From: Thermoplasmatota archaeon
GTDB lineage: Archaea; Thermoplasmatota; E2; DHVEG-1
Direction: 5' to 3'
Assembly (NCBI GenBank): GCA_036626215.1
Contig: JAZKSG010000001.1
Coordinates: forward strand, 5,634 to 69,633
DNA length: 64,000 bases
Part shown: piece after piece, positions 4,286 through 44,009 of the stretch
How the letters are laid out: each line of letters starts with the position of its first letter
How positions within the stretch are numbered: position 1 is the stretch's first letter
Made by a program: the position numbers and the translations under genes
Notes under the pieces: generated by a model
Seen by the model: only the letters and a program-made list of their open reading frames with translations
Told to the model about the DNA's origin: nothing
Database searches by the model: none

Positions 4286-5794
4286 ATGAAGGACTCACTT
4301 GATTACATATACAAAAAACAAGAGGAACTTTCAACAATTGGAGGAATAGCTGCACTTTTAGGATGGGATCAAATGACATATATGCCTCCTAAAGGAGCTG
4401 CAGCTAGATCGAAACAATCCTCCTATGTTTCTAGGCTTGCGCATGAAAAAATTGTATCTGACAAACTATGGAAACATATACAAAAACTCTCCAAAGAAAG
4501 TAATTTTAAAAAACTATCTGAAGAAGATAAAATCGTTGTTAAAAAACTGAGGAAAGATGTAAAAAAAGCTAGAAAGGTTCCATCTGATTTTGTAGAAAAA
4601 ATGAGTGTGGCAACCACTAAAGGATATGAGGCATGGAAAAAAGCACGTAAAAAAAATAATTTCTCAACTTTTGAACCACATCTGAAAAAAATTGTTGAAT
4701 TGGAACGGGAATATTGTGATTATATAAATATACCTGGTCCAAAATACAACAGTCTCCTAGACGATTATGAAGAAGGGATGACTGTTGATAAACTAAAAAA
4801 AGAATTTGATTTTTTGAAAAAAAGATTAACCATAATATTGGATAAAATCAAAGACAGTCAAGTCTACAAAGGGCAGAGAGGTTTAGACGAAGAATTTGAT
4901 ATAGAAAAACAGAAAAGGATATGCCGTAAGATAATAAGTAAACTTCAGCTGCCGGAGGCAAAGGCTAGGCTAGATGAATCGCCACATCCGTTTACCACGT
5001 CTCTAGATCATGATGATGTTCGTATCACAACCAATTTTGAACACAAAAATCCTTTGTTTTCATTTTTTTCAACTATTCATGAAACCGGGCATGCCCTATA
5101 CGAGCTAGAAATGCCTCAAAAAAAGTATAAAAACACTGTTGTCTCTGACGCCGCATCTGTAGGGCTGCATGAATCTCAATCTCGTTTCTGGGAGAACATG
5201 ATCGGTCGAAACAAAATATTTTGGAAGCACTTCTTTCCATTTTTTAAAAAAATGTTTCATGATAAATTGAGACAGATAGATTTAGAAAGCTGGTATAAAC
5301 TTGTTAATCAAGTGAAACCTGGTTTGATAAGAGTTGAAGCTGATGAGTTAACATATAATTTACATATAATTCTAAGATTCAACCTTGAACTTGATTTAAT
5401 AAATGATAATGTTGATGTTTCTGATCTTCCAGAGATTTGGAATAGAAAAATGGATAATCTACTTGGTGTGAAGCCTTCAAAAGATAGAGAAGGAGTTTTG
5501 CAGGATATGCATTGGAGTCAAGGTCATTTTGGATATTTTCCGACTTATACAATTGGTACAATTTATGCATCTCAACTCTATTCTACTCTTACAGAGAAAA
5601 AATCCTCCATCAGAAGAGACATAGAGAATGGTGATTTTAAAAATATTGTTTCATGGCTCAAAGACAATATACATAATTATGGGAGAACTATGACAGCGGA
5701 TGAAATAATTAAAAATGTTTGCAATAGTGGTTTAAACGCAGAAGAATATATTGATTATCTAAAGAAGAAATATTTTGAAGTATATGAGATATAG
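4286..5794 (+). CDS. Carboxypeptidase Taq-like metallocarboxypeptidase (MEROPS M32)
   Basis: 502 aa. Motifs HPF, DVRITT, HETGHALYE (HExxH), HESQSRFWE, IRVEADELTYNLH, and GYFPTYTIG at the C-terminus. Confidence 0.85.
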   Translation: MKDSLDYIYKKQEELSTIGGIAALLGWDQMTYMPPKGAAARSKQSSYVSRLAHEKIVSDKLWKHIQKLSKESNFKKLSEEDKIVVKKLRKDVKKARKVPSDFVEKMSVATTKGYEAWKKARKKNNFSTFEPHLKKIVELEREYCDYINIPGPKYNSLLDDYEEGMTVDKLKKEFDFLKKRLTIILDKIKDSQVYKGQRGLDEEFDIEKQKRICRKIISKLQLPEAKARLDESPHPFTTSLDHDDVRITTNFEHKNPLFSFFSTIHETGHALYELEMPQKKYKNTVVSDAASVGLHESQSRFWENMIGRNKIFWKHFFPFFKKMFHDKLRQIDLESWYKLVNQVKPGLIRVEADELTYNLHIILRFNLELDLINDNVDVSDLPEIWNRKMDNLLGVKPSKDREGVLQDMHWSQGHFGYFPTYTIGTIYASQLYSTLTEKKSSIRRDIENGDFKNIVSWLKDNIHNYGRTMTADEIIKNVCNSGLNAEEYIDYLKKKYFEVYEI

Positions 5795-6612: not shown

Positions 6613-7689
6613 ATGATAAAAAAAACAAAAATTATAGTGCTAGTGATATGCTGTATACTTTTCTTAACAACTATCTCTCTTGGATCAGCAGAAGAGAGTG
6701 CTGCTATAGAAGATGAGGAAAATGATATTTATGATTTTTCAGGTATGGCGCTAGGAGGAGAATATTCAGAAAAAAGTTTTAATAATCCAGCTATCGACAT
6801 AAAAGAAGTGAGCTGTTTTAAAGAGGAAAACGGAAACATTACTGCAACTCTTGAAGTATATGGAGAAATACAGGACAAAGGATCCAACGAGTCTGCCTCT
6901 CTAAATCTTTCAGATATGTCTGCTCTTTTAGAATACACCAAGCCAAATATTTACTATATGGTTCAGATAAACACCTCGCAAAATATCTACACTGTTTCAT
7001 ATATCAACAAAACTTGTAATATTACAAAGGGAGAATACTCTCTATCATCTACGCCAGGGGTCGAAGGGTCTGAGACAATAGAGGTTGATTACGAGAAAGA
7101 CGATGAGAGTAAGATAAGTTTTACTTTTGATACTGGAAATTCAAATGAAACAATTAAAGAAATAACAGGTATTTCAGCATATTTTAAATTTAATCTAACG
7201 GCTATATTACAAATGGAAGGGGGAAAAGGAGGTAGTAACTATATGTCCCTTTTGGACTATTTTGTCGACACAGCCCCTAACCCCGATTTGAGTGGCACTT
7301 TTTACACAGTTTCTGAGGGAAAAGTTGGAGAGGAAATAAATTTTACAGCAAACAGTTTTGGTGGTGCACCGCCATATAGTTTCCAGTGGGATTTTGGTGA
7401 TGGCAATAGCGATACTGGAAGAAAATTAACATACACATATGATGAAAAAGGCAACTATACCGTAAATTTAACAGTGACAGATAATAACGGCAACAAAACA
7501 TACTATACACAGCAAATCAAGATAAAATCTTCCTCAACTTCAACGCCTGACTCAAACGACGACAAAGAAGAAGGGGAGGGGGGCGATGCAGCAGACAATT
7601 TAGAGTCGAACCTGCTGATATTTATAGGATTAATATCCCTAATAGTAATCGTAGGTGTTGCAGTTTTAACATATATCAAAAAAAGATAA
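6613..7689 (+). CDS. Secreted/surface protein with PKD domain and C-terminal transmembrane anchor
   Basis: Signal peptide MIKKTKIIVLVICCILFLTTISLGSA. PKD signature FQWDFGDGNSDTGRKLTYTYDEKGNYTVNLTVTDNNGN. Ser/Thr/acidic linker followed by a C-terminal TM LLIFIGLISLIVIVGVAVL and KKR. Confidence 0.75.
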   Translation: MIKKTKIIVLVICCILFLTTISLGSAEESAAIEDEENDIYDFSGMALGGEYSEKSFNNPAIDIKEVSCFKEENGNITATLEVYGEIQDKGSNESASLNLSDMSALLEYTKPNIYYMVQINTSQNIYTVSYINKTCNITKGEYSLSSTPGVEGSETIEVDYEKDDESKISFTFDTGNSNETIKEITGISAYFKFNLTAILQMEGGKGGSNYMSLLDYFVDTAPNPDLSGTFYTVSEGKVGEEINFTANSFGGAPPYSFQWDFGDGNSDTGRKLTYTYDEKGNYTVNLTVTDNNGNKTYYTQQIKIKSSSTSTPDSNDDKEEGEGGDAADNLESNLLIFIGLISLIVIVGVAVLTYIKKR

Positions 7690-7788: not shown

Positions 7789-9150
7789 ATGAATAAAAAG
7801 AAAAAAAACGGTGAAAAAGAGAGCAAATATGCATACAAAAGAAAAAACGGATGGACAACACTAGAAAAAAAACATAAAAAAATATATGATTTTTGTGACG
7901 AATATAAAAAGTTTTTAAACGATGCTAAAACAGAAAGAGAGGCAATACAACAGATAAAAAAAGTTGTTGATAAAAAAAATAGAGATATAAAGATAAACAA
8001 CGAAACTTCTGCAGCAATAATAGCTAAAGGAAAAAAACCTGTTGAAGAAGGGTTAAAAATCGTAATTTCGCATGTTGACTCCCCTCGTCTCGATTTAAAA
8101 CAAATCCCGCTTTTTGAAGACAACGACAGTAATTTAGCCTTATTTGAGACACATTACTATGGAGGAATAAAAAAGTTTCATTGGGTAACAATTCCACTTG
8201 CTTTACATGGAATAGTAGTAAAAGAAAATGGAGAAAAAATTGATTTTAGACTGGGTGATAAAAAAGATGACCCCTGGTTTTCAGTTCCAGATTTGCTACC
8301 TCATCTCTCACATGAAGTACAAAACACAAAAAAGATGAACAAAGCAATAAAAGGCGAATCTTTAGATATTATAGTAGGAAGTAAACCTATACAGAATGAA
8401 GAAATCAAGGAGAAAATTAAAGCAGCGGTTTTAGAAAAACTACATAAAGACTATGGTTTAATTGAGGAAGATTTTATTTCAGCTGAACTAGAAGCAATAC
8501 CCGCATATTCCTCCCGGGATATAGGTTTTGATAGATCCATGGTAGGGGGATATGGACAAGATGACCGTGTCTGTGTCTTCAGCGCTTTAAAAGCAATATT
8601 AGATATAAACAAACCAGATTATACAGCTGTGAGTTTATTTGTAGATAAAGAAGAAATAGGCAGCGAAGGAAACTCCTCAGCACAAGTAACCACGTTTCTA
8701 AGATCCATTATCAAAGAGTTGGACTCCGATGCAGATGTAGATAAAGTTATGTTGAATTCAAAAGTTGTATCAGCAGACGTAAATGCTGCAGTAACTCCAA
8801 ACTATACTCAGGTTTTTGAACTAAAAAACGCTTCTTCTCTTGGTAGAGGAGTTGTGATATCTAAATATACAGGCCATGGCGGAAAATATGCTGCCAACGA
8901 CGCAAAAGCAGAATACGTAGCAGAAATAAGGAACATGTTGAACCAAAACGACATACCCTGGCAGACAGGGGAGTTAGGAAAAGTAGACAAAGGCGGAGGA
9001 GGGACAGTAGCCAAATATCTGTCGCGGCTTGGTATGAACGTTATAGATTTAGGGCCGTCAGTTATGAGTATGCATGCTCCTTTTGAAGTAACAAGTAAGG
9101 TAGATGTTTATTCTACCTATTTAGCATACAAAACATTCTTACAGAAATAA
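7789..9150 (+). CDS. M18-family aminopeptidase (aspartyl aminopeptidase-like)
   Basis: 453 aa. VISHVDSPRLDLK, the H-x-D-S-P motif of M18. Also GYGQDDRVC, and MSMHAPFE near the C-terminus. Confidence 0.75.
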   Translation: MNKKKKNGEKESKYAYKRKNGWTTLEKKHKKIYDFCDEYKKFLNDAKTEREAIQQIKKVVDKKNRDIKINNETSAAIIAKGKKPVEEGLKIVISHVDSPRLDLKQIPLFEDNDSNLALFETHYYGGIKKFHWVTIPLALHGIVVKENGEKIDFRLGDKKDDPWFSVPDLLPHLSHEVQNTKKMNKAIKGESLDIIVGSKPIQNEEIKEKIKAAVLEKLHKDYGLIEEDFISAELEAIPAYSSRDIGFDRSMVGGYGQDDRVCVFSALKAILDINKPDYTAVSLFVDKEEIGSEGNSSAQVTTFLRSIIKELDSDADVDKVMLNSKVVSADVNAAVTPNYTQVFELKNASSLGRGVVISKYTGHGGKYAANDAKAEYVAEIRNMLNQNDIPWQTGELGKVDKGGGGTVAKYLSRLGMNVIDLGPSVMSMHAPFEVTSKVDVYSTYLAYKTFLQK

Positions 9151-12798: not shown

Positions 12799-13557
12799 TT
12801 ATTTTTGTATAGCTTCAATTATACCGGTTAGAGTTTTGTCTAACTCAGTGTCTTCTTCTAGAGCAGTACCAGTAACTATTATATCTGCCCCCGCCCGTGT
12901 TTTACTTTCAGCAGTTTCAGCATCTCTGATTCCGCCCCCCACTATCAGAGATATATCAGTATTTTCTTTAACCGCAGAAATCATTTCATCAGAAACCGGT
13001 TGAGAAGCCCCAGACCCTGCTTCCAAATAGAAAAAATTCATACCAAGATATTGAGCTGAAAGAGCATAACCTACAGCGGTACCAACATCATCGCGTTTAA
13101 CCAAATCTACTTCACCGATTTCACCAGCAACCATACCAGGTTCCACAATAAGATAACCCATACTCAACGGCTCCAAACCTGATTTTTTTATAAAAGGAGC
13201 AGCTTTAACATGTTCACGGATCACATAATCAAGATTCCGTGAGTTGAGAAGACTCATAAAAAAAATCCCATCGGCATATCTACTTAGGAATTTAGCAGCT
13301 GATGGAAAGATTACAACGGGGATATTAGTACTTCTTTTTATTGATCTAACAGTTTCATCGACTTGCTCACAGGAAGAAAGAGTGGAGCCGCCTACCATGA
13401 TTGCACTACTACCTGCATCTTCCGCTGTTTTAGCTAACAACCCTGCTCTACGTGGTGTTTGATCCTCAGGATCGAGTAACGCGAAATGAAGTTTCTTATT
13501 TTTTACCTCGTTAATGATGTTCTCTGTTAAACTCATATTAACCCCAAAATAAAACAT
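12799..13557 (-). CDS. Geranylgeranylglyceryl phosphate synthase (PcrB/GGGPS family; archaeal ether-lipid synthesis)
   Basis: 252 aa. HFALLDP, MVGGST, and the C-terminal GADIIVTGTALEE motif. Confidence 0.8.
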   Translation of the reverse strand: MFYFGVNMSLTENIINEVKNKKLHFALLDPEDQTPRRAGLLAKTAEDAGSSAIMVGGSTLSSCEQVDETVRSIKRSTNIPVVIFPSAAKFLSRYADGIFFMSLLNSRNLDYVIREHVKAAPFIKKSGLEPLSMGYLIVEPGMVAGEIGEVDLVKRDDVGTAVGYALSAQYLGMNFFYLEAGSGASQPVSDEMISAVKENTDISLIVGGGIRDAETAESKTRAGADIIVTGTALEEDTELDKTLTGIIEAIQK

Positions 13558-14415: not shown

Positions 14416-15330
14416 TTATGATAAATCAGCTACATCAAAACGAGTGCTATAATGAGATAAAGCTGCAACTAACACAACTCCAACAGCTATAGAAAAAAAG
14501 GTTATAAAAATATTAGACGGATTAGAAACAATATAGCCTCCAGGTTTACGCAATGAACCAATCATCAAACCTATAATAAAAGAAAGAGTCGCAGCATGAT
14601 ATTTTTTGAGTAGAAAAGATAAACCACGAGAGAAAACTAAAAGACCGAAAACTCCTCCTAAAACATAGGCCGATGCGTGAGGTAGAGCTGAAAAATCTAA
14701 CCCAGATATTTTCTTCAAAACGTTCAACATAAATGTATACTGGCCAAGTAAAAGCAAAATAAATGCACCAGAGACACCAGGCAATATCATCGCGCAAAAA
14801 GAAGCTGCTCCTGAAACAAAAACAATCAAAATAGAATGAGAGGCATTAACTGCGTCTAAACCAACGATATAGAAAGCTAATAGAAAACCTGGAACAGCCC
14901 ATAACAATGGAGTCCATCCAACATTTTTCTCAAGACTAAAATAAACAACAAAGGCAGATGAAACAATTAAACCAAGAAAAAAAGCATATGTATAAGATGG
15001 ATAAACATCGGTCAAAAAATCTATCACATTAGCCAACGAAATAAAAGCAACAAGTACACCCAAAGCCAAAGAAACCAGAAAAACAAAATCAATACCCAAA
15101 AAATTCTCCTTAGATTTATGGAAATATTTCCGGTCGACAAAACCTTTAAAAAAATAGGGAATAAACTTCAAATCAATAGAACGTATAGCATCAATTAAAC
15201 GCTCATAGATACCAGTGATCAAAGCTATAGTTCCACCAGAAACACCAGGTATGATGTCGGCGCTACCCATAAAGATGCCTTTAAGGAAAACGACTAACGA
15301 ATCCATCAAGTTTTGTTTTTCCTCTGTCAA
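14416..15330 (-). CDS. DUF368-family polytopic membrane protein (putative polyprenyl-phosphate translocase PopT-like)
   Basis: 304 aa, ~8 TM helices. Duplicated GVSGGTIALITG / PGVSGAFILLLLG motifs characteristic of DUF368. Confidence 0.65.
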   Translation of the reverse strand: MTEEKQNLMDSLVVFLKGIFMGSADIIPGVSGGTIALITGIYERLIDAIRSIDLKFIPYFFKGFVDRKYFHKSKENFLGIDFVFLVSLALGVLVAFISLANVIDFLTDVYPSYTYAFFLGLIVSSAFVVYFSLEKNVGWTPLLWAVPGFLLAFYIVGLDAVNASHSILIVFVSGAASFCAMILPGVSGAFILLLLGQYTFMLNVLKKISGLDFSALPHASAYVLGGVFGLLVFSRGLSFLLKKYHAATLSFIIGLMIGSLRKPGGYIVSNPSNIFITFFSIAVGVVLVAALSHYSTRFDVADLS

Positions 15331-17346: not shown

Positions 17347-20300
17347 TTATTCCGTATCCCTCGCCAGCATTATATCAATGCTGGTCGACTCAGCTATATG
17401 AACATTATTCTCTTTGTATGTATATGTAACATTTACATCGTTTTCAACTATAGTCTGGTCGACTGAAATATTATACCAACCCGGAGAGAGTTCTACTGAA
17501 TAGTAGCCGTCTTCATCCGAAGAAACAGTTCTACCTATAGCAGCGTTATTCTCAACCGAATAGTCTACTTTGAAATCTACTTCAACATCCCCAACAGCTT
17601 TGTTATTATTCTTGTTTTTAGTATAACCATCAACGGTAACTGAATGTTTCTCCATATCAAGAGTATACATAGTGCTGAGAGATTGGTTAACTATTAGATT
17701 ATCTGTGAAACTATACACTGGTGTATTCTCTTCTTTGTAATCAACTGTTACATTGTATATACCTGGTTTCAAAGCAGTTTTGTAATAACCGTTTTCATCT
17801 GTCGTTGCAGTGGTTTTCTCTGCAGTGTTGCTCCCAACGGATCCATCTGGCATAAATTTGATATTTATGTTTTTAGTTTCTATTGTTTTGTTGTCATATT
17901 CTATATAACCTGTTAGATTATTAGACATGGATAGATTAGTAGATTTGGTTTCATTTTCTGCGGGATAAACTGCGGTTTTCTCTGCTTTGAATCTGCCATC
18001 TTCAGCTATTGCATTTATCGAGTAATTATTGAGATTGTTACCACCTATTTTACCGGGATATATCGAAGTAAAATTATACATCCCGTTTTCATCCGTTGTG
18101 GTATTGGCGACAACATCGCTTTTAGGCATATATCCAGTTTGTCCCCCCATATTATAGGTCAACTTGTAATTGTGATTCAAAGTTACGTCAGCATCTGATA
18201 TTTCTTCACCCTCGTCATACAATCCATTTTGGTTATCATCATAATATACTCTTCCTTCTATGGTTGATTTTTTAGGTATCGAAAAGTTATAATTTTTTAA
18301 ACCAGAGTGTAGAGATAGGGACGTAGCATTGATGTAGTAACCATTGTGTTTTGCAAGGAACTCATATTTACCAGGGAAAAGATCTGTAAAGTTATATGTG
18401 CCATTTACATCAGAGTTGGTGTTTTTGGTTTCGCCATATTGAGCGTTTTGTTGTTGACGTGTGGGAAAGGCAGTAATCTCCCTCAATGAGATGGTGACAT
18501 TCTTCAACGGTTTATTTTTGGTTGAGTTGTATACAAATCCTTTCAACTCTGCAGGAGGAATAGAAAGGTTGCCTAAATTGATTATTCCTTTATCCTGTCG
18601 TCTCATGGCTTTGTCATCAGAAACGGAGAGGGTTATATTTTTCAGAATAAAAACATCGAAAAATTCAAAGGATAAATTTTTCTTAAGGCCTTGATGATAA
18701 AGATTTGAACCAACATAAGCTTCATCCAGATAAGATGAAAACTGTGAAAGTTGTTCAGGATATCTAATTACACGAATTGTAATATCTCCACCACCTGTGA
18801 GAACGCTAAAGTTTCCATCAGATATTTCTTCGCTACCATGATTTATATATAAAGTTTTACCATCTGGCCGAGTCAGATTATTCTGTACCATTATCAACAG
18901 GGATCGATCAGCTGATCCATTACCATAAACTAGTGAGCCATTAACTGTTGCGCCTTCATAATATTTGGCTATAACTACTGGTTTAAGATGCTTTTCAAAA
19001 CGAGCCCCTGTATGGAGGTATTCTGCATAAAAATGTTTCATACCCGAACACGGCAGTTGACCTAAAGGATATTTTTGATCCCGCATAGGAGAAGGCCCTA
19101 AAAATGTTCTATAAAACATGGTGTCATAGTAAAGAGACCGATGTTGCTGTCTTTGATCAACAGGCCGGATATATGTTTTTTCTTCTTCAGAAAGATTGTA
19201 ATAATATTCTGCATCTCTCCAACCTAAATCCTCAGACTCCTTCTCAGGATTGTTAGGAAAAATTCTCTGTAGTTTAAGCTGTGTTTTAACGAAGTCATCC
19301 TGTGGTGCACCCGCCATCACCAGGCTTTTATCTGATAGAAAAGCAAAAATGTTGAAAATCTGCTGATCACGTTGTTCAACACCATAATATCGTATACTGT
19401 AACCAGTAGACTCTTGCAAATCATGGTACAAACTGTTTATCTCTTCATCAGAAAGCCCATGTGTTTTATTAGTCAACATAGAGACTACATCATGATACAA
19501 AGCCATCTCTGGCCATTGCGCACCGACTTTTAAAAACCTTTTATCAACATCTTCTCTAAGATATTCATGATATTTTTTGTCTATAATTTCACCATACGAT
19601 GGTGCAGAAGTTGGAGTTTTAACCCATTTCGTAATTTTATTAGCTTTATTCCCACCTAAATATTCTTCTAAAACTTTTTTGGTGCTCTGTGAAAGAACAC
19701 CTTCATTGTCGTTAGCATCCCCTTCCAGCAATCTTACAATCCATACAGATACTGCTTCTTTTTCACTAGTAGCCGTATGAAAGTTAGATGCAGGAGGTAT
19801 ACCATCCTGGAAGTTATCAGCAACAGTAGGATGATTTCCTGTAGCTACCTCATAAAATCCATAATCCCACCAAGATATAAAGGCAGGTCGATCAACAGAA
19901 TTATTAATATCTTGATCCTGCTCACTAAGCCATTGAAAAGTCGCAGTCCAATAGGCTTCTTGATCATAGCCTAAACCAAATGGATGAGATACCTTTTCAC
20001 CCCAATAATCCTTTTTTTCTTCAAAAGGTACAGCTGAAGTGAAAGCAGGTATGGCATTTAATATCACAACCATGGCAACAAACAGAACGCCGACCAGGTG
20101 GAGAGGTTTAACACCTCTACGGAAACCATGAAGGCCTCCTCCAGCGCTCTTTATGTTACGTATCATCTTAGGGTAATTAAGCCAGCTGACTATTTTATAA
20201 ATCATAAAACCAGCGAAAATAGCTATCACAGGAGCCATATCTGTAATAAAACGACCAGCGATAGAGATAAGCCAAACATTTACAACAAAAAGGACACATA

Positions 20301-21612
20301 AAAACAAATAAGGCTTTTTACTGGTGTCTTTGTAGTATTTATAAAGCAGAAAGAAAAAACCAGCCAACCCAATCCAAAAGAGAGCAGCACCAAAATTCAT
20401 AACAGTTTGACTTATTCCAAAGGACTGAGCTTCACCAATAGTCAGAGAAACTTTTTTACCATAAATCCCGCCGGTTCCACGTATAATATCCGTAAACTTG
20501 GTCAACCTCGAAAAAGGAGCAAAAAACTGAGATAACTCTCTAGCATAATACAGAATTGAAAAACCTATCCCACCGAGTCCAATAACCACCGGTAAAGATA
20601 GAGTCCAAGGAATATTTTTACGATTCAAAAAGTAAGAGATTACGCCAAATAAAGCTACACCCAAACACAGAAAGAGAGGAATATTTATCGGCACGCCATT
20701 ATGTTTTGTAAACAAAACAGGCATTGAAACCAAATAACCTGTAACCATCATAATCAAAGGTGAAGAAAAAGTACGTAGATTTTTTTCTCCTCTTAATAAA
20801 TCTACAAAAATCTGAACGACGGCGTACAAACCGATGACGGTATAAATATACTCATGTTCAACCCATACCATACTTAAACCAGCTATAGAAAGACCGCCAA
20901 GTAAGCCATACAAAAGCGAACGAAGGTCATCTTTTTCTTTGATGCTTTTTATTAGAAACATAAAGGTGGTAAAAAACAATAGAATATTCAATGAATCATG
21001 GTCAAACAAAGAATAAATCGAGCCGTGGCTACCGCCTATAATAGCCACCATCAAAGGGATCCACAACGCAGATAATAAACCTATTTTCTTGTTGAAAATC
21101 TCTTTACCAATAAAATAAATTGGGAATACTAATAGTGCCCCAAATAAACAGGGTATAAACTGCATAGAATACCCTATCGCATCTATCTCACCCATAAAAG
21201 GCGTAAGGAAATTACTGAACCCCAAAGCCATCATGTTGAGCAAGGGAGCACGGCCACCGGACCGGGCAAGAGGGTAGTTCAAAAGTGGATCATTTTCATT
21301 ATAAAATGGATATGTCCCTGTTTCATGTGTTTTTTCAACAAGCCTCATATTGTAATATGGGTCAGTACCAGACAGATAATATTTAGATAATCCTTCACCA
21401 TCTTCATTCACATAAACACCACTCTGCATATTAAAATAAGAATTGTGAAGTAAAACAAGTAAAAATACGCCGATTAACGCTACAGTCACCCACCAGTTTT
21501 TACCTATATTGAACAGACTCTTTCTTTTACTAGTCTCCGCAGAGGTTTTTCTTGTAACATGTTTAGGTTTATCAGATGCAGATTTGCTTTTTCTTTGTGC
21601 ACGTTTTCGCAT
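17347..21612 (-). CDS. aglB: Oligosaccharyltransferase AglB (STT3 family) with long C-terminal extension carrying four Cna-B/CarboxypepD_reg-like repeats
   Basis: 1421 aa. N-terminal 13-TM region followed by the catalytic SWWDYGF motif. C-terminal ~450 aa contain four repeats of DENG-x-Y-x-F...PG-x-Y (GTYNFTDLFPGKYEF, DENGMYNFTSIYPGKI, DENGYYKTALKPGIYNVTV, DEDGYYSVELSPGWYNISV). Confidence 0.85.
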   Translation of the reverse strand: MRKRAQRKSKSASDKPKHVTRKTSAETSKRKSLFNIGKNWWVTVALIGVFLLVLLHNSYFNMQSGVYVNEDGEGLSKYYLSGTDPYYNMRLVEKTHETGTYPFYNENDPLLNYPLARSGGRAPLLNMMALGFSNFLTPFMGEIDAIGYSMQFIPCLFGALLVFPIYFIGKEIFNKKIGLLSALWIPLMVAIIGGSHGSIYSLFDHDSLNILLFFTTFMFLIKSIKEKDDLRSLLYGLLGGLSIAGLSMVWVEHEYIYTVIGLYAVVQIFVDLLRGEKNLRTFSSPLIMMVTGYLVSMPVLFTKHNGVPINIPLFLCLGVALFGVISYFLNRKNIPWTLSLPVVIGLGGIGFSILYYARELSQFFAPFSRLTKFTDIIRGTGGIYGKKVSLTIGEAQSFGISQTVMNFGAALFWIGLAGFFFLLYKYYKDTSKKPYLFLCVLFVVNVWLISIAGRFITDMAPVIAIFAGFMIYKIVSWLNYPKMIRNIKSAGGGLHGFRRGVKPLHLVGVLFVAMVVILNAIPAFTSAVPFEEKKDYWGEKVSHPFGLGYDQEAYWTATFQWLSEQDQDINNSVDRPAFISWWDYGFYEVATGNHPTVADNFQDGIPPASNFHTATSEKEAVSVWIVRLLEGDANDNEGVLSQSTKKVLEEYLGGNKANKITKWVKTPTSAPSYGEIIDKKYHEYLREDVDKRFLKVGAQWPEMALYHDVVSMLTNKTHGLSDEEINSLYHDLQESTGYSIRYYGVEQRDQQIFNIFAFLSDKSLVMAGAPQDDFVKTQLKLQRIFPNNPEKESEDLGWRDAEYYYNLSEEEKTYIRPVDQRQQHRSLYYDTMFYRTFLGPSPMRDQKYPLGQLPCSGMKHFYAEYLHTGARFEKHLKPVVIAKYYEGATVNGSLVYGNGSADRSLLIMVQNNLTRPDGKTLYINHGSEEISDGNFSVLTGGGDITIRVIRYPEQLSQFSSYLDEAYVGSNLYHQGLKKNLSFEFFDVFILKNITLSVSDDKAMRRQDKGIINLGNLSIPPAELKGFVYNSTKNKPLKNVTISLREITAFPTRQQQNAQYGETKNTNSDVNGTYNFTDLFPGKYEFLAKHNGYYINATSLSLHSGLKNYNFSIPKKSTIEGRVYYDDNQNGLYDEGEEISDADVTLNHNYKLTYNMGGQTGYMPKSDVVANTTTDENGMYNFTSIYPGKIGGNNLNNYSINAIAEDGRFKAEKTAVYPAENETKSTNLSMSNNLTGYIEYDNKTIETKNINIKFMPDGSVGSNTAEKTTATTDENGYYKTALKPGIYNVTVDYKEENTPVYSFTDNLIVNQSLSTMYTLDMEKHSVTVDGYTKNKNNNKAVGDVEVDFKVDYSVENNAAIGRTVSSDEDGYYSVELSPGWYNISVDQTIVENDVNVTYTYKENNVHIAESTSIDIMLARDTE

Positions 21613-22735: not shown

Positions 22736-24970
22736 ATGAGAGATTTTAGAAGAGTTTTGATTTTTATACTTTTCATATTAGTTTTATCGTCATTAAACTT
22801 TGCAAGTTTGTCGTCAGCCTCTGACAATCCAGGCGATCAAATAAATGCCGTTTTTACTATCAATTTTAAAGAACCTACTCTTTTAGATATAGAAGTAACA
22901 ATAAACGTTGATAAAATAACTGTAATGGGAGGTACCCAAACATATCTGGGCAGTGAGATAAAGAATGTAGGGCCAGAAACTATAGGTATGATTAAAGAAA
23001 ATATAAGAACTAAACTTAAAAAACAGATAGGATTGGTTTTTTATGAAACAACTGAGGATGCATATGACGATATAACAGCTGAGTCTGAAGTTACACATGA
23101 GGGAAACAACGTTTTTTCAGATAACTTCGAAGTCAAACTTAACTCAGAATTTTTTGGGATACGGAAAAATGTTGAGTCTAATAATCTCATAAAATCTGTC
23201 TTAGATATGGGGGGGAAAGTCGACTATACGCTTGATCTTCAGGCAGAACCAGGATGGACAAACACATATAATATCATTTTGAATAGCTACCACCCCCTGA
23301 AACACCATGGCGAATACACCGATGCATCCGAATTTCATCCTATAATAACTAATCAGGATGGAGAGAAAACAAAAGTAGTTAAGCAGAATTTATCTTTAAA
23401 ACTTGAAGATGCTACAACGCCAACATTATCATCAGAAGACATATTTGTTAAATATTATCTGGACTCAAAAGATATGACAGATACCTCCCTCAACATTTCA
23501 TTGTTATTTAGAAATGTAGATATAAAAAATTATGATTTTTTACCTAAAAGTATAAAACTCGATTTTATACCTGCCGACGGAGTGCGTTTCTTTAACGAAC
23601 TTGGTTTACTCAACTGGAGTGATTTTAAAACAAAAACTGTTGGACCTATTATGGAAGAAATAAAGGAAGCTATTGAAAGCAGTGAGTTTGACCAAATCTT
23701 AAGTTTGTCATTCAAATGGAATAACGCTACAACTACAGAATGTAAAAATCCTTATGATATCAACAACATGGATAACAAATCAGCTATAAAAGCAGAATAT
23801 ACTGATGAAAAAGTTGATCTGAGAATGTTAGGGATAACAGATAAAGCATTCTATGGACTCATAAACTCTGGTGGAATACCAACAAATTTCACAAAAGAAG
23901 ACATCAATTTCGGTGAGAATCTATGGGAAACAGGTTACAACTATGAAATAATAATGATGATGCCTGGGAATATAACGCTCCAAGACAAAAACCCATATGT
24001 TTTGAAGAGAAACGAAACCTTTTCAGGTAGCTTCGATTCAAAAGATGCAAAACATTACAATAAAGAAAACAAAGAGATCTTTATAACTATAGATATAAAA
24101 GAACCGAGTTTAAATCTATTAAGTTTTGTAACAGGTAAAACCCAACTGGAGTTCAACGTAAATGTTGAAGAGATAAACCAGTACTATGTTTTAGATAGAA
24201 ACACATCTGGATTTACTCTTCCATCAGATATAAAACTTGATTATCTATGCGCAGACGCATTTAGATTATGTGTACAAGAGAATGTTTTCAACGAAAGCGA
24301 TATAGATGATTTTCTGAAAAATGAAAAAACTATTTTCAAAAACAGAGTGAAAAACATATGGATAGGATCAGAAATCGGTAAGAACACTAAGGTTGAAGAG
24401 AAATCTTTCAAAAAATCGATATTTAACAAGGAAATCAACATCCAAGAAATGGAGAACGCTCCATCCGTTAAAGTAAATACCAATGCGGATTTTACCAAAC
24501 CTTTACCATTTGATCTTGATTTTATTCCACCAAACTTCGATATAAAGAAACAAAACTATGAGCTAAAAGGATTAGAAGGACACAATGTTACATACAAAAT
24601 CATCTTCCCAAAAGGATTATCTCTCGACACTTCTAACGAATTAGATAAAAATCTAAACATAGATACAACAAAGGATGGAAGAAAATATGTCACTATGAGT
24701 TTTAACAAAACAGAAAGTAACCTCTCTGACACAGTTTCCTGTAAATTAAAACCTTCAGGTTTATTTGTATTAGGTGTATTCACGCCTTGTATAGTCAGCT
24801 TTGTAGTAGCAGTTATCTTAATACTTGTTATTATGTTCTTAAGACGTAAAAGACGAGGCGGAAGGACAAAGGCTTCAAAGAGAAAACCTAGGCAGGAGGA
24901 ACCAAAAGAAGAAGGAGTATATGAAGACGAAGATTTTTATATGCCGCCTCCACCAGGTTCAAAAAAATAA
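22736..24970 (+). CDS. Large secreted/surface-anchored protein of unknown function (signal peptide, C-terminal TM and charged Pro-rich tail)
   Basis: 744 aa. Signal peptide MRDFRRVLIFILFILVLSSLNFASLSSA. No recognisable catalytic motif. C-terminus PSGLFVLGVFTPCIVSFVVAVILILVIMFLRRKRRGG...FYMPPPPGSKK. Confidence 0.6.
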   Translation: MRDFRRVLIFILFILVLSSLNFASLSSASDNPGDQINAVFTINFKEPTLLDIEVTINVDKITVMGGTQTYLGSEIKNVGPETIGMIKENIRTKLKKQIGLVFYETTEDAYDDITAESEVTHEGNNVFSDNFEVKLNSEFFGIRKNVESNNLIKSVLDMGGKVDYTLDLQAEPGWTNTYNIILNSYHPLKHHGEYTDASEFHPIITNQDGEKTKVVKQNLSLKLEDATTPTLSSEDIFVKYYLDSKDMTDTSLNISLLFRNVDIKNYDFLPKSIKLDFIPADGVRFFNELGLLNWSDFKTKTVGPIMEEIKEAIESSEFDQILSLSFKWNNATTTECKNPYDINNMDNKSAIKAEYTDEKVDLRMLGITDKAFYGLINSGGIPTNFTKEDINFGENLWETGYNYEIIMMMPGNITLQDKNPYVLKRNETFSGSFDSKDAKHYNKENKEIFITIDIKEPSLNLLSFVTGKTQLEFNVNVEEINQYYVLDRNTSGFTLPSDIKLDYLCADAFRLCVQENVFNESDIDDFLKNEKTIFKNRVKNIWIGSEIGKNTKVEEKSFKKSIFNKEINIQEMENAPSVKVNTNADFTKPLPFDLDFIPPNFDIKKQNYELKGLEGHNVTYKIIFPKGLSLDTSNELDKNLNIDTTKDGRKYVTMSFNKTESNLSDTVSCKLKPSGLFVLGVFTPCIVSFVVAVILILVIMFLRRKRRGGRTKASKRKPRQEEPKEEGVYEDEDFYMPPPPGSKK

Positions 24971-24981
24971 AAAAACTTTTT

Positions 24982-26181
24982 TTATTTCTTAAAATACGCT
25001 GGAAGAAGCTTTAGTAAAGAGGGTTTCTTAGTTAATAAAGGTCTAACAAGATTAGAAGGATAATCAATATCTCCATATTCGTTTATAACATCTATAACTT
25101 TTGGATCCTGCAGTTTTTTTATGTATTTATCCATCTGCCGGTCGGTGAGTTTACAAAATATTTTCCTAAAATGCAGACTTTTTTTGATTTCTTTGCCTAC
25201 ATCAGCAGTCCATCTTTTATGATACTCTTTTAGAGAATAACTAGAAAGATCTTGTTTTTCAAAAGAACTTGATATAACATCTATAGCATGCTTTGCTGCT
25301 ACTAAACCAGGATAGATGCCGCCTCCGGAGGTGGGTTTTACTTGTGCCGCTGCATCACCTATCAGCAAAATTTGATCTTTATATGTCTCAGGCAGATATC
25401 CAAGAGGTATTACCCCCGCTATCTTTTTGTTTAAAACAGGTTTATCAAAAAATTTACTAGTTTTTTTACTTTCCAAAAATTTTTGAAAACATTTTTTAGA
25501 CGACAGAGATGAACTAGCAGTTGTGCATAGTCCTACTCGTGCTTTCGATCCATCTTTATTGATAGGGATAACCCATGCAAAAAAACCAGGGGCGATGTTG
25601 TTTCCAACAAATATTTCTACAAAATCTGGGTTTAAACAGGTATTCTCTATCTCTGCTCCAATCCCTATTAGTTTCTCCCTGGGTTGGGGAAAATCAAATT
25701 TTTTTCTAACCACAGAGTTTGCCCCATCGGCACCTATGAGAAGTTTGCATTCTACTTGTTTCTTCTTAGGAGTCTCAAAAAAGATTTTTTTGTTTTTTCT
25801 CTTGAATTTTATGGCTTTGTTTTCTGTAAAAAACTTTGCGTTTTGTTTTTTAGCAACTTTAATGATTTCTTTGTCAAACTTTATACGATTTATAACCAAC
25901 GCATGTTTTTTATCTCCACCAACTGAAAGTACGTGATCTGATGGAGGGTGTATGTTCGCACCTTTTATCGTATTTTGAACAGTTTTTGATTTTGAAGCAA
26001 CAGTATAGTCGAAAACCCTTGGTGTTATCAAACCTGCACATTGTAATGGCTCCCCTACAGATGGTTTTTTTTCAAAAACTGCTACAGAATGTTTTTTATC
26101 TGCTAAAACCGCCGCAGTGGTCCCTCCAACAGGACCTCCGCCTATTATCGCTACGTCGTATTCTTCTTTTTTATTGTTCAT
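24982..26181 (-). CDS. Geranylgeranyl reductase-family FAD-dependent oxidoreductase (digeranylgeranylglycerophospholipid reductase-like)
   Basis: 399 aa. FAD-binding YDVAIIGGGPVGGTTA, LIGADGANSVVRK, and GDAAAQVKPTSGGGI near the C-terminus. Confidence 0.8.
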   Translation of the reverse strand: MNNKKEEYDVAIIGGGPVGGTTAAVLADKKHSVAVFEKKPSVGEPLQCAGLITPRVFDYTVASKSKTVQNTIKGANIHPPSDHVLSVGGDKKHALVINRIKFDKEIIKVAKKQNAKFFTENKAIKFKRKNKKIFFETPKKKQVECKLLIGADGANSVVRKKFDFPQPREKLIGIGAEIENTCLNPDFVEIFVGNNIAPGFFAWVIPINKDGSKARVGLCTTASSSLSSKKCFQKFLESKKTSKFFDKPVLNKKIAGVIPLGYLPETYKDQILLIGDAAAQVKPTSGGGIYPGLVAAKHAIDVISSSFEKQDLSSYSLKEYHKRWTADVGKEIKKSLHFRKIFCKLTDRQMDKYIKKLQDPKVIDVINEYGDIDYPSNLVRPLLTKKPSLLKLLPAYFKK

Positions 26182-27630: not shown

Positions 27631-27826
27631 AGCAAAAGTAGACGAAAAACAGTGTTTAGCCTGCGGCGGATGCATAAGTGTTTGTCCTCAAGATGCAATC
27701 TCCATGGAGGGAAGAAAAGCATTTGTGGATTCCAGAAAATGTGTTGGCTGTAAAATCTGTATAAAAACATGCCCAATTGGAGCAATAAAAGAAACAAAGG
27801 GGGAAACAGTAGATGCAGAAATATGA
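27608..27826 (+). CDS. 2x[4Fe-4S] ferredoxin
   Basis: 72 aa. CLACGGCISVCP and CVGCKICIKTCP. Overlaps the upstream DUF99 gene and the downstream GGR gene. Confidence 0.85.
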   Translation: MNHMGKPKAKVDEKQCLACGGCISVCPQDAISMEGRKAFVDSRKCVGCKICIKTCPIGAIKETKGETVDAEI

Positions 27827-29030
27827 TGCAATAGTGGTTGGAAGTGGACCCGCAGGCAGTGTAACAGGACGTTTCGCAGCTGAAAACGATGCAAACGTAC
27901 TGATAATAGATAGAAGACAGACAGTTGGTGTACCCGTTCTATGCGGAGAAGGAATCAGCCGGAAGATAGACGACTGGGATATGTTAAGAGGAGATCGTTG
28001 GATAGCAGGGCGAATGGATGGCGCTAGGATTTATAGCCCTGATGGCACGATGGTTGAACTTTCAGCAGATATAGCGGGTAACGAAACCGGATATGTAGTA
28101 TACAGAGATTTATTTGATCAAGAACTTGCTCATAGAGCTGCAGAAGCAGACGTCGAAATAATGATGAACACCCAAGCAACAGGATTAATCAAAGAAAACG
28201 GAGAGTTAAAAGGTGTTGAAGCAAAAAGATTTAGCGAAAAAGTTGAGATAGAAGCCGACTTAGTAGTAGGTGCAGACGGTGTAGAATCAAAAGTTGGAAA
28301 ATGGGGTGGAATAAATACAACACTTAAACCTGATGAGTTGGAAACCTGTTGCCAGTATACTCTAACCAATGTAGACGTAAAAGATGCATACTGTGATTTC
28401 TACCTTGGAAAAAAAATAGCTCCAGGTGGCTATATATGGGTTTTCCCCAAAGGAAATAACACCGCAAATGTAGGTATCGGGATCTTAGCGAGTCTAAGTA
28501 ACCCTGGTGAAGCAAAAAAACTTCTTGATGAGTTTATCAAAAAAGATAAAAGGCTTAAAAAAGGCCAACCTATCCGTTTTCTCGCTGGAGCTGTACCCGT
28601 AACGACACCTAAGAAAACCGTTAAAGACAATTTAATGTTAGTAGGCGATGCAGCCAGACAGGTAGACCCTATAACGGGAGGAGGATTAACTCATAGTCTT
28701 CAGGCAGGTAAAATAGCTGGTGAAGTCATCGGTGAGGCAGTAGAAAAACAAGATTTCTCAGAAGACTTTCTGATGAAATATGAAAAACAATGGAAACAAC
28801 AGATAGGACAAAAACTTAAAAGAAACAACATGGTAAAAGAAGTAATGTTAGATATGGATGATAAAACGTTTAACATGTTAGCTGACTCACTTAAAGACTA
28901 CAAATTTGAAGAACTCAGCACATTCAGCCTAATAAAAGCACTTGTCACCAAACACCCAACCTTACTCATGAAATTAAAACCCTTATTAAAAGTTTCAAAA
29001 GAAAACAAAAAAAAGAAAAGTAGGGAGTAA
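27813..29030 (+). CDS. Geranylgeranyl reductase-family FAD-dependent oxidoreductase (second paralog; ferredoxin-coupled)
   Basis: 405 aa. YDAIVVGSGPAGS, VVGADGVESKVGK, GDAARQVDPITGGGL. Start overlaps the ferredoxin gene by 14 nt. Confidence 0.8.
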   Translation: MQKYDAIVVGSGPAGSVTGRFAAENDANVLIIDRRQTVGVPVLCGEGISRKIDDWDMLRGDRWIAGRMDGARIYSPDGTMVELSADIAGNETGYVVYRDLFDQELAHRAAEADVEIMMNTQATGLIKENGELKGVEAKRFSEKVEIEADLVVGADGVESKVGKWGGINTTLKPDELETCCQYTLTNVDVKDAYCDFYLGKKIAPGGYIWVFPKGNNTANVGIGILASLSNPGEAKKLLDEFIKKDKRLKKGQPIRFLAGAVPVTTPKKTVKDNLMLVGDAARQVDPITGGGLTHSLQAGKIAGEVIGEAVEKQDFSEDFLMKYEKQWKQQIGQKLKRNNMVKEVMLDMDDKTFNMLADSLKDYKFEELSTFSLIKALVTKHPTLLMKLKPLLKVSKENKKKKSRE

Positions 29031-41946: not shown

Positions 41947-42127
41947 GGATCAATGGCGGGGTATAGTTTCATATATAATATGTAAGACGTAAGTATAGAC
42001 AGCAACGTATTCGTTTAATGGTATTTCAATATTCTCATTTTTAAAAATATATTAATAGACAAATCTTTTTATTTTTTATTCAAAATCACAAAATTTGACA
42101 CTTTTTTGGCAACCCACACATTTTTCT

Positions 42128-42148
42128 TTTCCACATGAAACAAAGGCC
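42128..42148 (+). promoter_or_regulatory. mini-ORB-like element
   Basis: TTTCCACATGAAACAAAGGCC has the TCCA...GAAAC core but no G-string. Confidence 0.4.
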
Positions 42149-42264
42149 TATCCCATTATTGTTTTAACCAACTAATATTATAAACTAAAATCAATTTTTT
42201 AAGGAGTACCCTCCTAGAGATAGGTACTGAAAAATATAAACAAGTTTTTAATACCACCCTCCCA

Positions 42265-42288
42265 TTACACATGAAATGAAGGGGGAAT
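42265..42288 (+). promoter_or_regulatory. Origin recognition box (ORB), plus orientation, abutting orc1 start
   Basis: TTACACATGAAATGAAGGGGGAAT shares GAAATGAAGGGG exactly with the inverted ORB at 41922-41946. Confidence 0.6.
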
Positions 42289-42291
42289 ATT

Positions 42292-43554
42292 TTGGCGAAT
42301 AAGAAAAACACTGTTAACAGTGACATATTTGGTAGACTACTAAAATCTAACGGTATTTTTATGAACCGTGAGGCAATGCGCCCATCTTACATGCCTGATG
42401 TTTTACCACATAGGGAAAAAGAAATAGATAACTTAGCTTCTGTTCTTGTACCTGCTCTAAGAGGAGAAACACCTTCAAATGTTTTCATATATGGTAAAAC
42501 TGGAACTGGAAAAACAGCAGTTACTAAGTTTCTAGGGAAAGAACTTTTGAAGAAAGGTGAAGAAACAGGAAAAGACGTTAATTTTATTTATATTAACTGT
42601 GAAGTGGTCGACACACAATATCGTCTTCTCCAGAACATAACTAATCATTTTATTGAAGAGTGGTCTGAAAGAATTCCTTTTACCGGTTGGCCAACTGACC
42701 AAGTTTTTGCTAAGCTTAAAAAGATGATTGAAAAAAACGGTGGAGTAGCTGTCATCATACTCGATGAAATTGACAAGTTAAAAGGAGATGAAGCTCTCTA
42801 TAATCTTTCACGTATCAACAGCGACCTACAAAACGCCAAAGTTTCTATTGTAGGAATTTCAAATGATCTTAAATTCACTGAGTTTCTTGATCCACGGGTA
42901 AAATCTAGTCTCGGTGAAGAAAATATGATTTTTCCACCCTATAACGCTGGAGAACTACAAGACATTCTGCATCAAAGGGTAGATATTGCGTTGAGAGATA
43001 ACGCAGTAAGCGATGATGTGATCCCTCTCTGTGCTGCTCTTGCTGCACAGGAACATGGTGATGCCCGTAGAGCATTAGACCTTCTTCGTATGAGTGCTGA
43101 ACTTGTGGAACGAAGTGATTCTCCTAAAGTTACAAAAAAATTTGTTCGACTAGCTCAAAACAAGATAGAAGTAGATCGTGTTATAGAAGTAGTTAGAACA
43201 CTTCCCACTCAATCTAAACTTATCCTATTCGCTATTTTGTTGCAAGAAAAGCACAACAAGAAGACTGAGTCAGCTGCTGCTATAACTACAGGAGAGGTCT
43301 ATAGCGTCTATAAAAACCTTTGTAAAAGAACTCGGACAGATTGTTTAACCCAGCGAAGGGTGGCAGATCTTATTTCTGAGTTGGATATGCTTGGCATAAT
43401 TACAGCAAGGGTAATATCTAAGGGTAGATATGGCCGGACACGTGAAATCAAGATGTCTTCTTCTTCTGAAGAAATCGCTGATATTCTTAAGGAAGATGAG
43501 GTTTTTGAAGATCTATCTAATTATAAATTCCATGGACAGGCAAGATTGATTTAA
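42292..43554 (+). CDS. orc1: Orc1/Cdc6 replication initiator
   Basis: 420 aa with a TTG start. Walker A YGKTGTGKTA. Walker B VIILDEID. Sensor and C-terminal winged-helix region present. Confidence 0.9.
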   Translation: MANKKNTVNSDIFGRLLKSNGIFMNREAMRPSYMPDVLPHREKEIDNLASVLVPALRGETPSNVFIYGKTGTGKTAVTKFLGKELLKKGEETGKDVNFIYINCEVVDTQYRLLQNITNHFIEEWSERIPFTGWPTDQVFAKLKKMIEKNGGVAVIILDEIDKLKGDEALYNLSRINSDLQNAKVSIVGISNDLKFTEFLDPRVKSSLGEENMIFPPYNAGELQDILHQRVDIALRDNAVSDDVIPLCAALAAQEHGDARRALDLLRMSAELVERSDSPKVTKKFVRLAQNKIEVDRVIEVVRTLPTQSKLILFAILLQEKHNKKTESAAAITTGEVYSVYKNLCKRTRTDCLTQRRVADLISELDMLGIITARVISKGRYGRTREIKMSSSSEEIADILKEDEVFEDLSNYKFHGQARLI

Positions 43555-44009
43555 AAGATAGAAAATTTTCTTTTCCCTTTTTCATTTTATTTCATATTTT
43601 TTCTAAAAAACATTTTAAAAAATCTTGATTAAAAGTGTAATTAAGGGGGCCGGGGAAATTACAGTTTTTTTGTTGTTATCATGAAAGCCATGATTTCTTT
43701 TTGTTAGGAATCGGGAATTTTGGTAAGCCCCATCCTTTTACCCTCTCTTTCTTCTTTAACTCGTTCCACCGGTTTTCCCCCAAAAATTTACAAATAGAAT
43801 GTAATACGGAACGCATTATTAAACTTTTACAAATAAATTGATGCCGCCGTTGATAAGATAATGTTAGACTTAGAAACTATGCCTAAAATGCCAAAGCAAC
43901 GATTAATATCTGGGCATAATAAATATTTACTTTTATGTAACAAAGTTTATAAAATATAAAAACAAATATTATTATAGAAAGATATAATAAAATGATGGAT
44001 TGAAGGTAT

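Follow-up and report, generated by a model that had tools for sequence, protein, structure and literature searches.

To our knowledge, AglB is the sole enzyme common to all archaeal N-glycosylation pathways, and we know of no role established for its accessory extracellular units, even in the enzymes that have been crystallised. What could such units be for? A 64,000-nucleotide stretch of DNA from an uncultured sediment Thermoplasmatota archaeon (contig JAZKSG010000001.1 of assembly GCA_036626215.1, positions 5,634 to 69,633; hereafter the window) raises the question. Its aglB gene encodes a protein of 1421 amino acids (aa) in which the catalytic domain is followed by a chain of predicted beta-sandwich modules. 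We read this tail, with a probability of about 0.6, as a stalk that extends from the catalytic head, is glycosylated and variable in length, and is probably stiffened by Ca2+; the remaining doubt concerns mostly its function, not its anatomy.

An intact AglB with a long C-terminal tail

By its sequence, the gene product is a genuine, intact AglB/STT3 oligosaccharyltransferase (OST; family GT66) with canonical catalytic machinery. The Pfam STT3 model matches aa 78-470 (2e-19, 70.7 bits, cutoff 24.5). The nearest solved relative by sequence is Archaeoglobus fulgidus AglB-L (AfAglB-L; 3WAJ, 5GMY, 7E9S), which aligns over aa ~80-625 with an E-value of 1e-13 for the single sequence and 3e-19 for the family profile. 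The acidic motif GTDPYY (aa ~82-87) aligns to GNDPWY of AfAglB-L, DHD (aa 204-206) to DHH and TIGE (aa 391-394) to TIAE; together with WWDYG, these motifs are invariant or near-invariant across 83 relatives. A preliminary description made from the sequence alone had called the product an AglB of 1421 aa, and both the identity and the length hold; it had placed WWDYG at about aa 590, and the motif actually lies at aa 581-585. The N-terminus (MRKRAQRKSK) is kept in homologs, and a 100% identical entry exists at NCBI as 'STT3 domain-containing protein [Candidatus Thermoplasmatota archaeon]'. We considered an assignment to the archaeosortase-associated STT3 subfamily and rejected it, since the TIGR04154 model (archaeo_STT3, archaeosortase A system-associated) scored 194.3 bits, below the NCBIfam cutoff of 450, and aligned over aa 70-623 only.

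The gene is divided as follows, with Pfam figures for single modules taken from scans of each module alone.

17347..21612, minus strand: complete aglB open reading frame (ORF), 1421 aa plus stop in a single uninterrupted frame
20023..21612, minus strand: cytoplasmic N-terminal tail and multi-span STT3 transmembrane catalytic domain, aa 1-530 (Pfam STT3, 3WAJ alignment, hydrophobicity)
19030..20022, minus strand: extracellular catalytic core, aa 531-861 (CC-type unit, helical insertion and beta region)
19858..19872, minus strand: WWDYG, aa 581-585, invariant in 83 sequences and aligned to the WWDYG of AfAglB-L
18757..19029, minus strand: module 0, aa ~862-952 (core model), a beta-sandwich of diverged transthyretin-like type, starting near an invariant AKYYEG
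18559..18756, minus strand: linker, aa 953-1018, made up of a helix, a loop modelled at low confidence (aa ~965-985) and a beta-hairpin that bears a conserved D-D-x-A-M-R
18268..18558, minus strand: module 1 (m1), aa 1019-1115, SpaA prealbumin-like (CarboxypepD_reg 36.6 bits, cutoff 32.3; SpaA 27.7, cutoff 23.1)
17926..18267, minus strand: module 2 (m2), aa 1116-1229, SdrD_B-like (33.7 bits, cutoff 29.7)
18202-18240, minus strand: EF-hand-like loop DDNQNGLYDEGEE, aa 1125-1137, in module 2 (loop pattern search)
17641..17925, minus strand: module 3 (m3), aa 1230-1324, copy-number-variable unit (weak CarboxypepD_reg, 24.4 bits, cutoff 32.3, E 4e-5)
17350..17640, minus strand: module 4 (m4), aa 1325-1421, terminal unit (weak CarboxypepD_reg, 20.5 bits, cutoff 32.3; NOMO_5th 19.5)

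Five predicted beta-sandwiches after the core

An AlphaFold2 model of aa 1010-1421, built from a 67-sequence alignment, is entirely beta and comprises four modules of ~95-115 aa each, starting at about aa 1019-1021, 1116, 1230 and 1325 (predicted local distance difference test, pLDDT, 93.9; predicted template modelling score, pTM, 0.78). Signature pairs with ~100 aa spacing run along the tail at aa 1068/1080 (DVNGTYNF...PGKY), 1174/1186 (DENGMYNF...PGKI), 1272/1283 (DENGYYKT...PGIY) and 1366/1377 (DEDGYYSV...PGWY). In the whole protein, Pfam CarboxypepD_reg (PF13620) matches four stretches (1e-18, 67.9 bits, cutoff 32.3), as does SdrD_B (PF17210; 3e-14, 53.6 bits, cutoff 29.7); SpaA is matched too, and the NOMO models weakly. 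On profile comparison, the four tail modules are mutually homologous true repeats: hhalign gave 99.9% (E 1.7e-33) for m3 with m4, 97-98% for m1 with m2, m3 and m4, 95.5% for m2 with m3 and 87.4% for m2 with m4. Self-comparison of the tail by BLASTP did not show the repeats, which emerged with profiles only.

The four CarboxypepD_reg-type beta-sandwich repeats of the preliminary description are thus borne out by the model, by Pfam and by hhalign (87-99.9%). Its accompanying label, Cna-B, stands at the level of the fold but not at that of the sequence family: Pfam Cna_B has no match at E ≤ 1 in the whole protein or in single modules, and the families matched are CarboxypepD_reg, SdrD_B, SpaA and, weakly, NOMO. 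Among the conserved tail columns there is no invariant Lys/Asn pair of the kind an isopeptide triad (Lys, Asn or Asp, Glu or Asp) would need. The invariant tail positions are mostly fold-core Gly/Tyr/Pro and N-glycosylation sequons.

With module 0 ahead of m1-m4, the models place five beta-sandwiches after the core. The preliminary description had taken 17347-18750 as the C-terminal extension; this range does cover the linker and four modules (aa ~955-1421) but leaves the fifth, at aa ~862-952, outside. A Pfam scan of module 0 alone gave no match, and in hhalign the module shows a weak relation to m3 and m4 (56-63%). It is predicted to form one compact body with the core (model pTM 0.89). In the linker that follows, pLDDT falls below 50 at model residues 426-446, the loop, and the A, M and R of the hairpin motif are invariant or near-invariant.

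Module 0 occupies the position of P1 in AfAglB-L. Below the hmmsearch threshold, an alignment to AfAglB-L aa 767-837 had raised the idea that the tail is an expansion of P1. We rejected it at the level of sequence, as AglB_L1 (PF18079, the P1 model) matches neither the whole protein nor any of its modules, the P1 fragment of AfAglB-L itself scoring 67 bits, and hhalign of P1 against modules 0 to 4 gives at most 8%.

A conserved architecture in its own family

Could the long ORF be an artefact of assembly or annotation, AglB having been fused to a surface-protein gene downstream of it? We regard this as next to impossible and found nothing in its favour. The reading frame is continuous, the linker carries invariant residues, and the fused architecture recurs in independent assemblies (more than 120 protein clusters) and in 68 complete species-level genes, with closed chromosomes (CP070712, CP070724 and CP070798) among its carriers. 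An assembly fusion, which the preliminary description had kept in view, is refuted by these clusters and genes and by the 154 loci described below; for annotation, the lesson is that long aglB ORFs are real.

The 120 best database relatives all align over their full length. They have 1273-1645 aa, 42-52% identity and the same domain set, and the named ones are metagenome-assembled genomes (MAGs) of Thermoplasmatota, Thermoplasmata and 'Thermoplasmatales', including SG8-52-1 and SG8-52-4. A scan of one genome per species gave 154 loci, all from uncultured Thermoplasmatota, of which the best 80 were used for synteny and gene lengths. The complete genes among these 80 (n=68) encode 1139-1645 aa. 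The aglB gene sits in conserved housekeeping synteny, with AMMECR1 at 76 of the 80 loci, a dihydroorotase-like gene at 74, inositol monophosphatase at 67, phosphoribosyl pyrophosphate (PRPP) synthetase at 61 and PcrB at 57.

Hidden Markov models (HMMs) of the modules, run on the 120 homologs, give the order m1-m2-(m3)n-m4 with zero to three copies of m3. The arrangement m1-m2-m3-m4 is found in 98/120, m1-m2-m4 in 13, m1-m2-m3 in one, and five or six modules, with an extra m3 or m4, in eight; the distal m4 is kept in nearly all variants. As the profiles assign them, m1 and m2 are constant within the family, and m3/m4-type units are duplicated or lost.

A continuum of tails in Thermoplasmatota

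To place the family, the STT3 core only (aa 60-640) was searched exhaustively against 1.84 billion representatives. This returned 214 at E ≤ 1e-30, and the best 150 were scanned with the module HMMs. They comprise the family itself, a tier of ~1000-1060 aa, proteins of ~700 aa and a large set of 2000-2775 aa with 30-36% core identity. WWDxG is present in 136 of the 150; 68 of these 136 have at least 1700 aa and 2-12 modules, and another 25 have 1100-1700 aa and at least two modules. The ~1000-aa tier retains module 0, with m1 present or not, and the ~700-aa forms mostly have zero modules.

By Pfam, the giants continue after STT3 with CarboxypepD_reg/SdrD_B arrays, to which CARDB is added in some cases. 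The giant homologs from Methanomassiliicoccaceae and Thermoplasmata MAGs (~1700-2775 aa; HOQ25765.1, MFA5772382.1) share with the 1421-aa protein the STT3 core (30-36%), module 0 and the module types. They differ in having 6-12 modules, extra C-terminal regions (CARDB, for example) and an insertion in the segment equivalent to the DK/MI motifs discussed below, the 1421-aa protein being a shorter, four-repeat form. Some giants of 2000-2775 aa with 6-12 modules also carry an unassigned C-terminal region of ~250-400 aa. Two giant clusters are named, one from Methanomassiliicoccaceae and one from a 'Thermoplasmata archaeon'. At NCBI both go under 'carboxypeptidase regulatory-like domain-containing protein', so that at least two giant AglBs are labelled without mention of the STT3 core they carry, a second lesson for annotation.

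The tail of Thermoplasmatota AglB is a continuum from 0 to ~12 modules in proteins of ~700-2775 aa, in which the 1421-aa protein is mid-sized. It is a normal design in uncultured Thermoplasmatota and unusual only against characterised AglBs. Among the latter, AfAglB-S1 and AfAglB-S2 have ~590 aa and Pyrococcus furiosus AglB ~970 aa. AfAglB-L has 868 aa (PMC3703281). The unusual length and architecture claimed in the preliminary description are therefore confirmed against these enzymes (~590-970 aa) but not within Thermoplasmatota, where many homologs reach 2000-2775 aa. AfAglB-L and P. furiosus AglB-L (2ZAG/2ZAI), whose chains stop at ~870-970 aa, have one or two peripheral units (P1, P2), in contrast to the five post-core beta-sandwiches of the 1421-aa protein, which are unrelated in sequence to AglB_L1/P1.

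We searched the literature for AglB with CarboxypepD_reg arrays and for giant Thermoplasmatota AglBs and found no paper describing them. Annotation pipelines already tag its tail domains. A specialist would be modestly surprised by the 1421-aa protein and somewhat more so by the 0-to-12-module series and the 2000-2775-aa forms. At the level of a phylum that includes gut-associated Methanomassiliicoccales relatives, a modular, copy-number-variable, sequon-rich array is appended to AglB. Its range of 0 to ~12 modules offers a natural deletion and expansion series for asking what the extracellular units do, and the array hints at how AglB is placed in the cell envelope of organisms not yet brought into culture.

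A tail predicted to be extracellular and rich in sequons

The hydrophobic segments of the protein extend to aa 530. Since none follows, and given the topology of AglB (3WAJ), the tail should be outside the cell. The density of sequons is 4.4 per 100 aa in module 0 and 4.2 in the tail, compared with 0 in the transmembrane region and 0.94 in the core, and N-X-S/T is enriched over shuffled sequences with z-scores of 5.1 (module 0) and 3.5 (tail). The corresponding family means are 3.79 and 0.87. Ten sequon positions are kept in 65-95% of the members: N891, N912, N992, N1015, N1029, N1074, N1220, N1226, N1287 and N1394. In module 2, the loop DDNQNGLYDEGEE corresponds to the EF-hand-like D-x-N-x-N-G-x-x-D-x-x-E pattern of SdrD B-repeats, and the pattern is present in 83/120 homologs. 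The B domains of SdrD bind Ca2+.

What the tail may do

In a Foldseek search against the Protein Data Bank, the tail matched Bacillus anthracis TIE (BaTIE, 6FWV; 2.5e-11), BcpA, PitA, SpaA pilins, GBS52 and SdrD. The TM-scores are low (~0.2), and single domains therefore match where the overall arrangement does not. BaTIE has four immunoglobulin (Ig) domains and measures ~19 nm (PMC8327139). The AglB tail resembles these Gram-positive CnaB/prealbumin-like arrays in fold, in its SdrD_B and SpaA matches, in the EF-hand-like loop and in variable copy number. However, the bacterial arrays are sortase-anchored adhesin or pilus stalks, whereas the AglB tail is fused to an archaeal integral-membrane enzyme, its inter-domain geometry differs, an isopeptide triad is not evident and Pfam Cna_B is not matched.

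The family tail profile also matches human NOMO2 (9C7V; 2.8e-11). NOMO1/2, of the BOS complex, is likewise a membrane-anchored, transthyretin-like chain of CarboxypepD_reg type in the compartment of N-glycosylation, and NOMO1 is a rod whose length sets the spacing of endoplasmic reticulum (ER) membranes (PMC8327139). NOMO is nevertheless a separate type I membrane protein of 12 domains, unfused to STT3, and the likeness, which is one of domain families, gives no ground for assuming orthology or a common function.

We favour a stalk because the best analogues are stalks and spacers and because copy number varies from 0 to ~12 with the order of modules 0, 1 and 2 fixed. After the core, module 0, the short linker and m1-m4 would form beads on a string, projecting from the membrane-bound catalytic head into the space of the cell envelope. 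Ca2+ bound at module 2 would probably stiffen this stalk, and the roughly ten conserved sequons would be heavily N-glycosylated, presumably by AglB itself. The lipid-linked donor holds the active site at the membrane, and the tail therefore could not reposition catalysis and would have to act by reaching outward. Its role would be structural, as a spacer, a scaffold or a shielded element of the surface coat, and non-catalytic. Some observations weigh against such a stalk. The sequon enrichment is partly compositional, the tail being 12% Asn; the pTM of 0.78 and the TM-score of ~0.2 to BaTIE indicate an inter-module geometry unlike that of the bacterial rod; and the conservation of loops like N-T-A in m3 could reflect ligand binding.

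This last point also bears on the proposal that the tail modules bind carbohydrate or the S-layer, tethering AglB to the surface layer or holding glycan or glycoprotein substrates and products near the enzyme. We think this unlikely, although CarboxypepD_reg-type sandwiches do share fold classes with carbohydrate-binding modules (CBMs), near-invariant loop residues occur (N-T-A in m3, and in the terminal m4), and the retention of m4 in nearly all variants is what one would expect of a docking end. No CBM or lectin family has a Pfam match at E ≤ 1 in the whole protein or in single modules, the top structural analogues are stalk domains and not CBMs, and most invariant positions are Gly/Tyr/Pro belonging to the fold core. 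In addition, a varying count of near-identical units is typical of spacers, and the heavy glycosylation predicted here would cover much of the module surface. The preliminary description had called the modules carbohydrate-binding-like and suggested a tether to the S-layer or to glycans, for which we find no direct support.

There are two other proposals. The array might be a length-coded ruler or strut that couples AglB to the surface layer, or be itself a glycosylated coat, with the number of modules setting or matching the width of the envelope space. We hold this to be quite improbable; if true, it would make the array an archaeal, OST-fused counterpart of NOMO, the eukaryotic spacer of the ER lumen. 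Still more doubtful is a role as additional peripheral units, comparable to P1 and P2 in AglB-L, packing round the core and stabilising it. Known AglBs do have beta-rich peripheral units, and stabilisation has been proposed for IS, P1 and P2 (bioRxiv 10.1101/2020.08.18.256065). Module 0, which is modelled in one body with the core and is kept in the ~1000-aa relatives, fits this idea, but it is plausible for that module only: the modules show no sequence relationship to AglB_L1/P1 (hhalign ≤8%), the low-confidence linker parts m1-m4 from the core, and arrays of 4-12 modules cannot all touch it. Moreover, the host organisms, known from sediment MAGs, are not evidently hyperthermophiles. We retain the stalk as the preferred reading.

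A non-canonical segment at the expected Ser/Thr-pocket position

A further AglB motif, in the extracellular core, has been published in two main forms, DK (DXXKXXX(M/I)) and MI (MXXIXXX(I/V/W)), and as a variant with an insertion (E<>KXXX(M/I/P)) (PMC3703281). The DK/MI motifs sit on a kinked CC-unit helix, where their second residue forms part of the wall of the +2 Ser/Thr pocket (PMC3703281). Neither the canonical DK nor the canonical MI form is present in the 1421-aa AglB. A candidate equivalent lies at the expected place.

19345..19368, minus strand: D749-Q-Q-I752-F-N-I-F756, on a predicted broken (kinked) helix after the strand SIRYYGV

In the core model, DSSP assigns a strand to residues 740-746 and helix to 747-750 and 753-759, the helix being split in two. 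The D, I, F, I and F of D749-x-x-I752-F-x-I-F756 are invariant in the family alignment, and the DxxI pattern is found in 118/120 members. In local alignments with more distant homologs, the Ile is kept and a ~10-residue insertion parts it from the Asp (...D-x-R...G-I-F-Y-A-P...); the giant homologs that do not match the DxxI pattern fail to do so because the insertion sits there. Position and conservation suggest an Ile-type pocket with Asp in the first position. A check for the DK/MI motifs, advised in the preliminary description, finds a hybrid D749xxI752xxxF756 in place of the canonical forms; with DxxIxxxF as its candidate pocket motif, the protein would differ from the known DK, insertion-variant and MI forms. 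For annotation, this is an AglB family with a non-canonical DxxIxxxF at the position expected for the Ser/Thr pocket.

Neighbouring genes and the rest of the window

Several genes near aglB may relate to lipid carriers or to the cell surface. Three genes downstream, on the same strand, a DUF368 protein (PF04018, 'undecaprenyl phosphate translocase-like', 2e-65; 14416-15330, minus strand) is found at 22/80 related loci; it is a candidate for recycling or flipping the polyprenyl (dolichyl) phosphate carrier. Isoprenoid-lipid genes also lie round aglB: one is PcrB/GGGP-synthase-like and two belong to the geranylgeranyl-reductase family (12799-13557, minus strand; 24982-26181, minus strand; 27813-29030, plus strand). 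PcrB is syntenic at 57/80 loci and the first geranylgeranyl reductase at 51/80.

Just past the PRPP synthetase gene, which lies upstream of aglB, a gene on the opposite strand (22736-24970, plus strand) encodes a protein of 744 aa. Its N-terminus resembles a signal peptide, it has a transmembrane anchor at the C-terminal end and a cytoplasmic tail that is basic and rich in Pro, and its sequons number 13. The protein is present at 54/80 related loci, its Pfam scan gave no match, and it may be a lineage-specific surface glycoprotein. Another likely surface protein, of 358 aa and with a PKD domain, is encoded at 6613-7689 on the plus strand.

Elsewhere in the window, three peptidases, an M32 carboxypeptidase (4286-5794, plus strand), an M18 aminopeptidase (7789-9150, plus strand) and a C25 (gingipain-like) peptidase (44516-46537, minus strand), fit a protein-degrading sediment archaeon. 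A Cdc6/Orc1 gene (42292-43554, plus strand) coincides with the turning point of the cumulative GC skew, which reaches a peak of 0.66 at 42-44 kb and declines from there, and the region at ~42000-44000 may be a replication origin. Finally, adjacent genes encode proteins of 997 aa (55236-58229, plus strand) and 1064 aa (58250-61444, plus strand), each with a PPDK_N (phosphoenolpyruvate/pyruvate-binding) domain and the rest unassigned, apart from a nucleotidyltransferase domain in the 1064-aa protein; both architectures are unusual.

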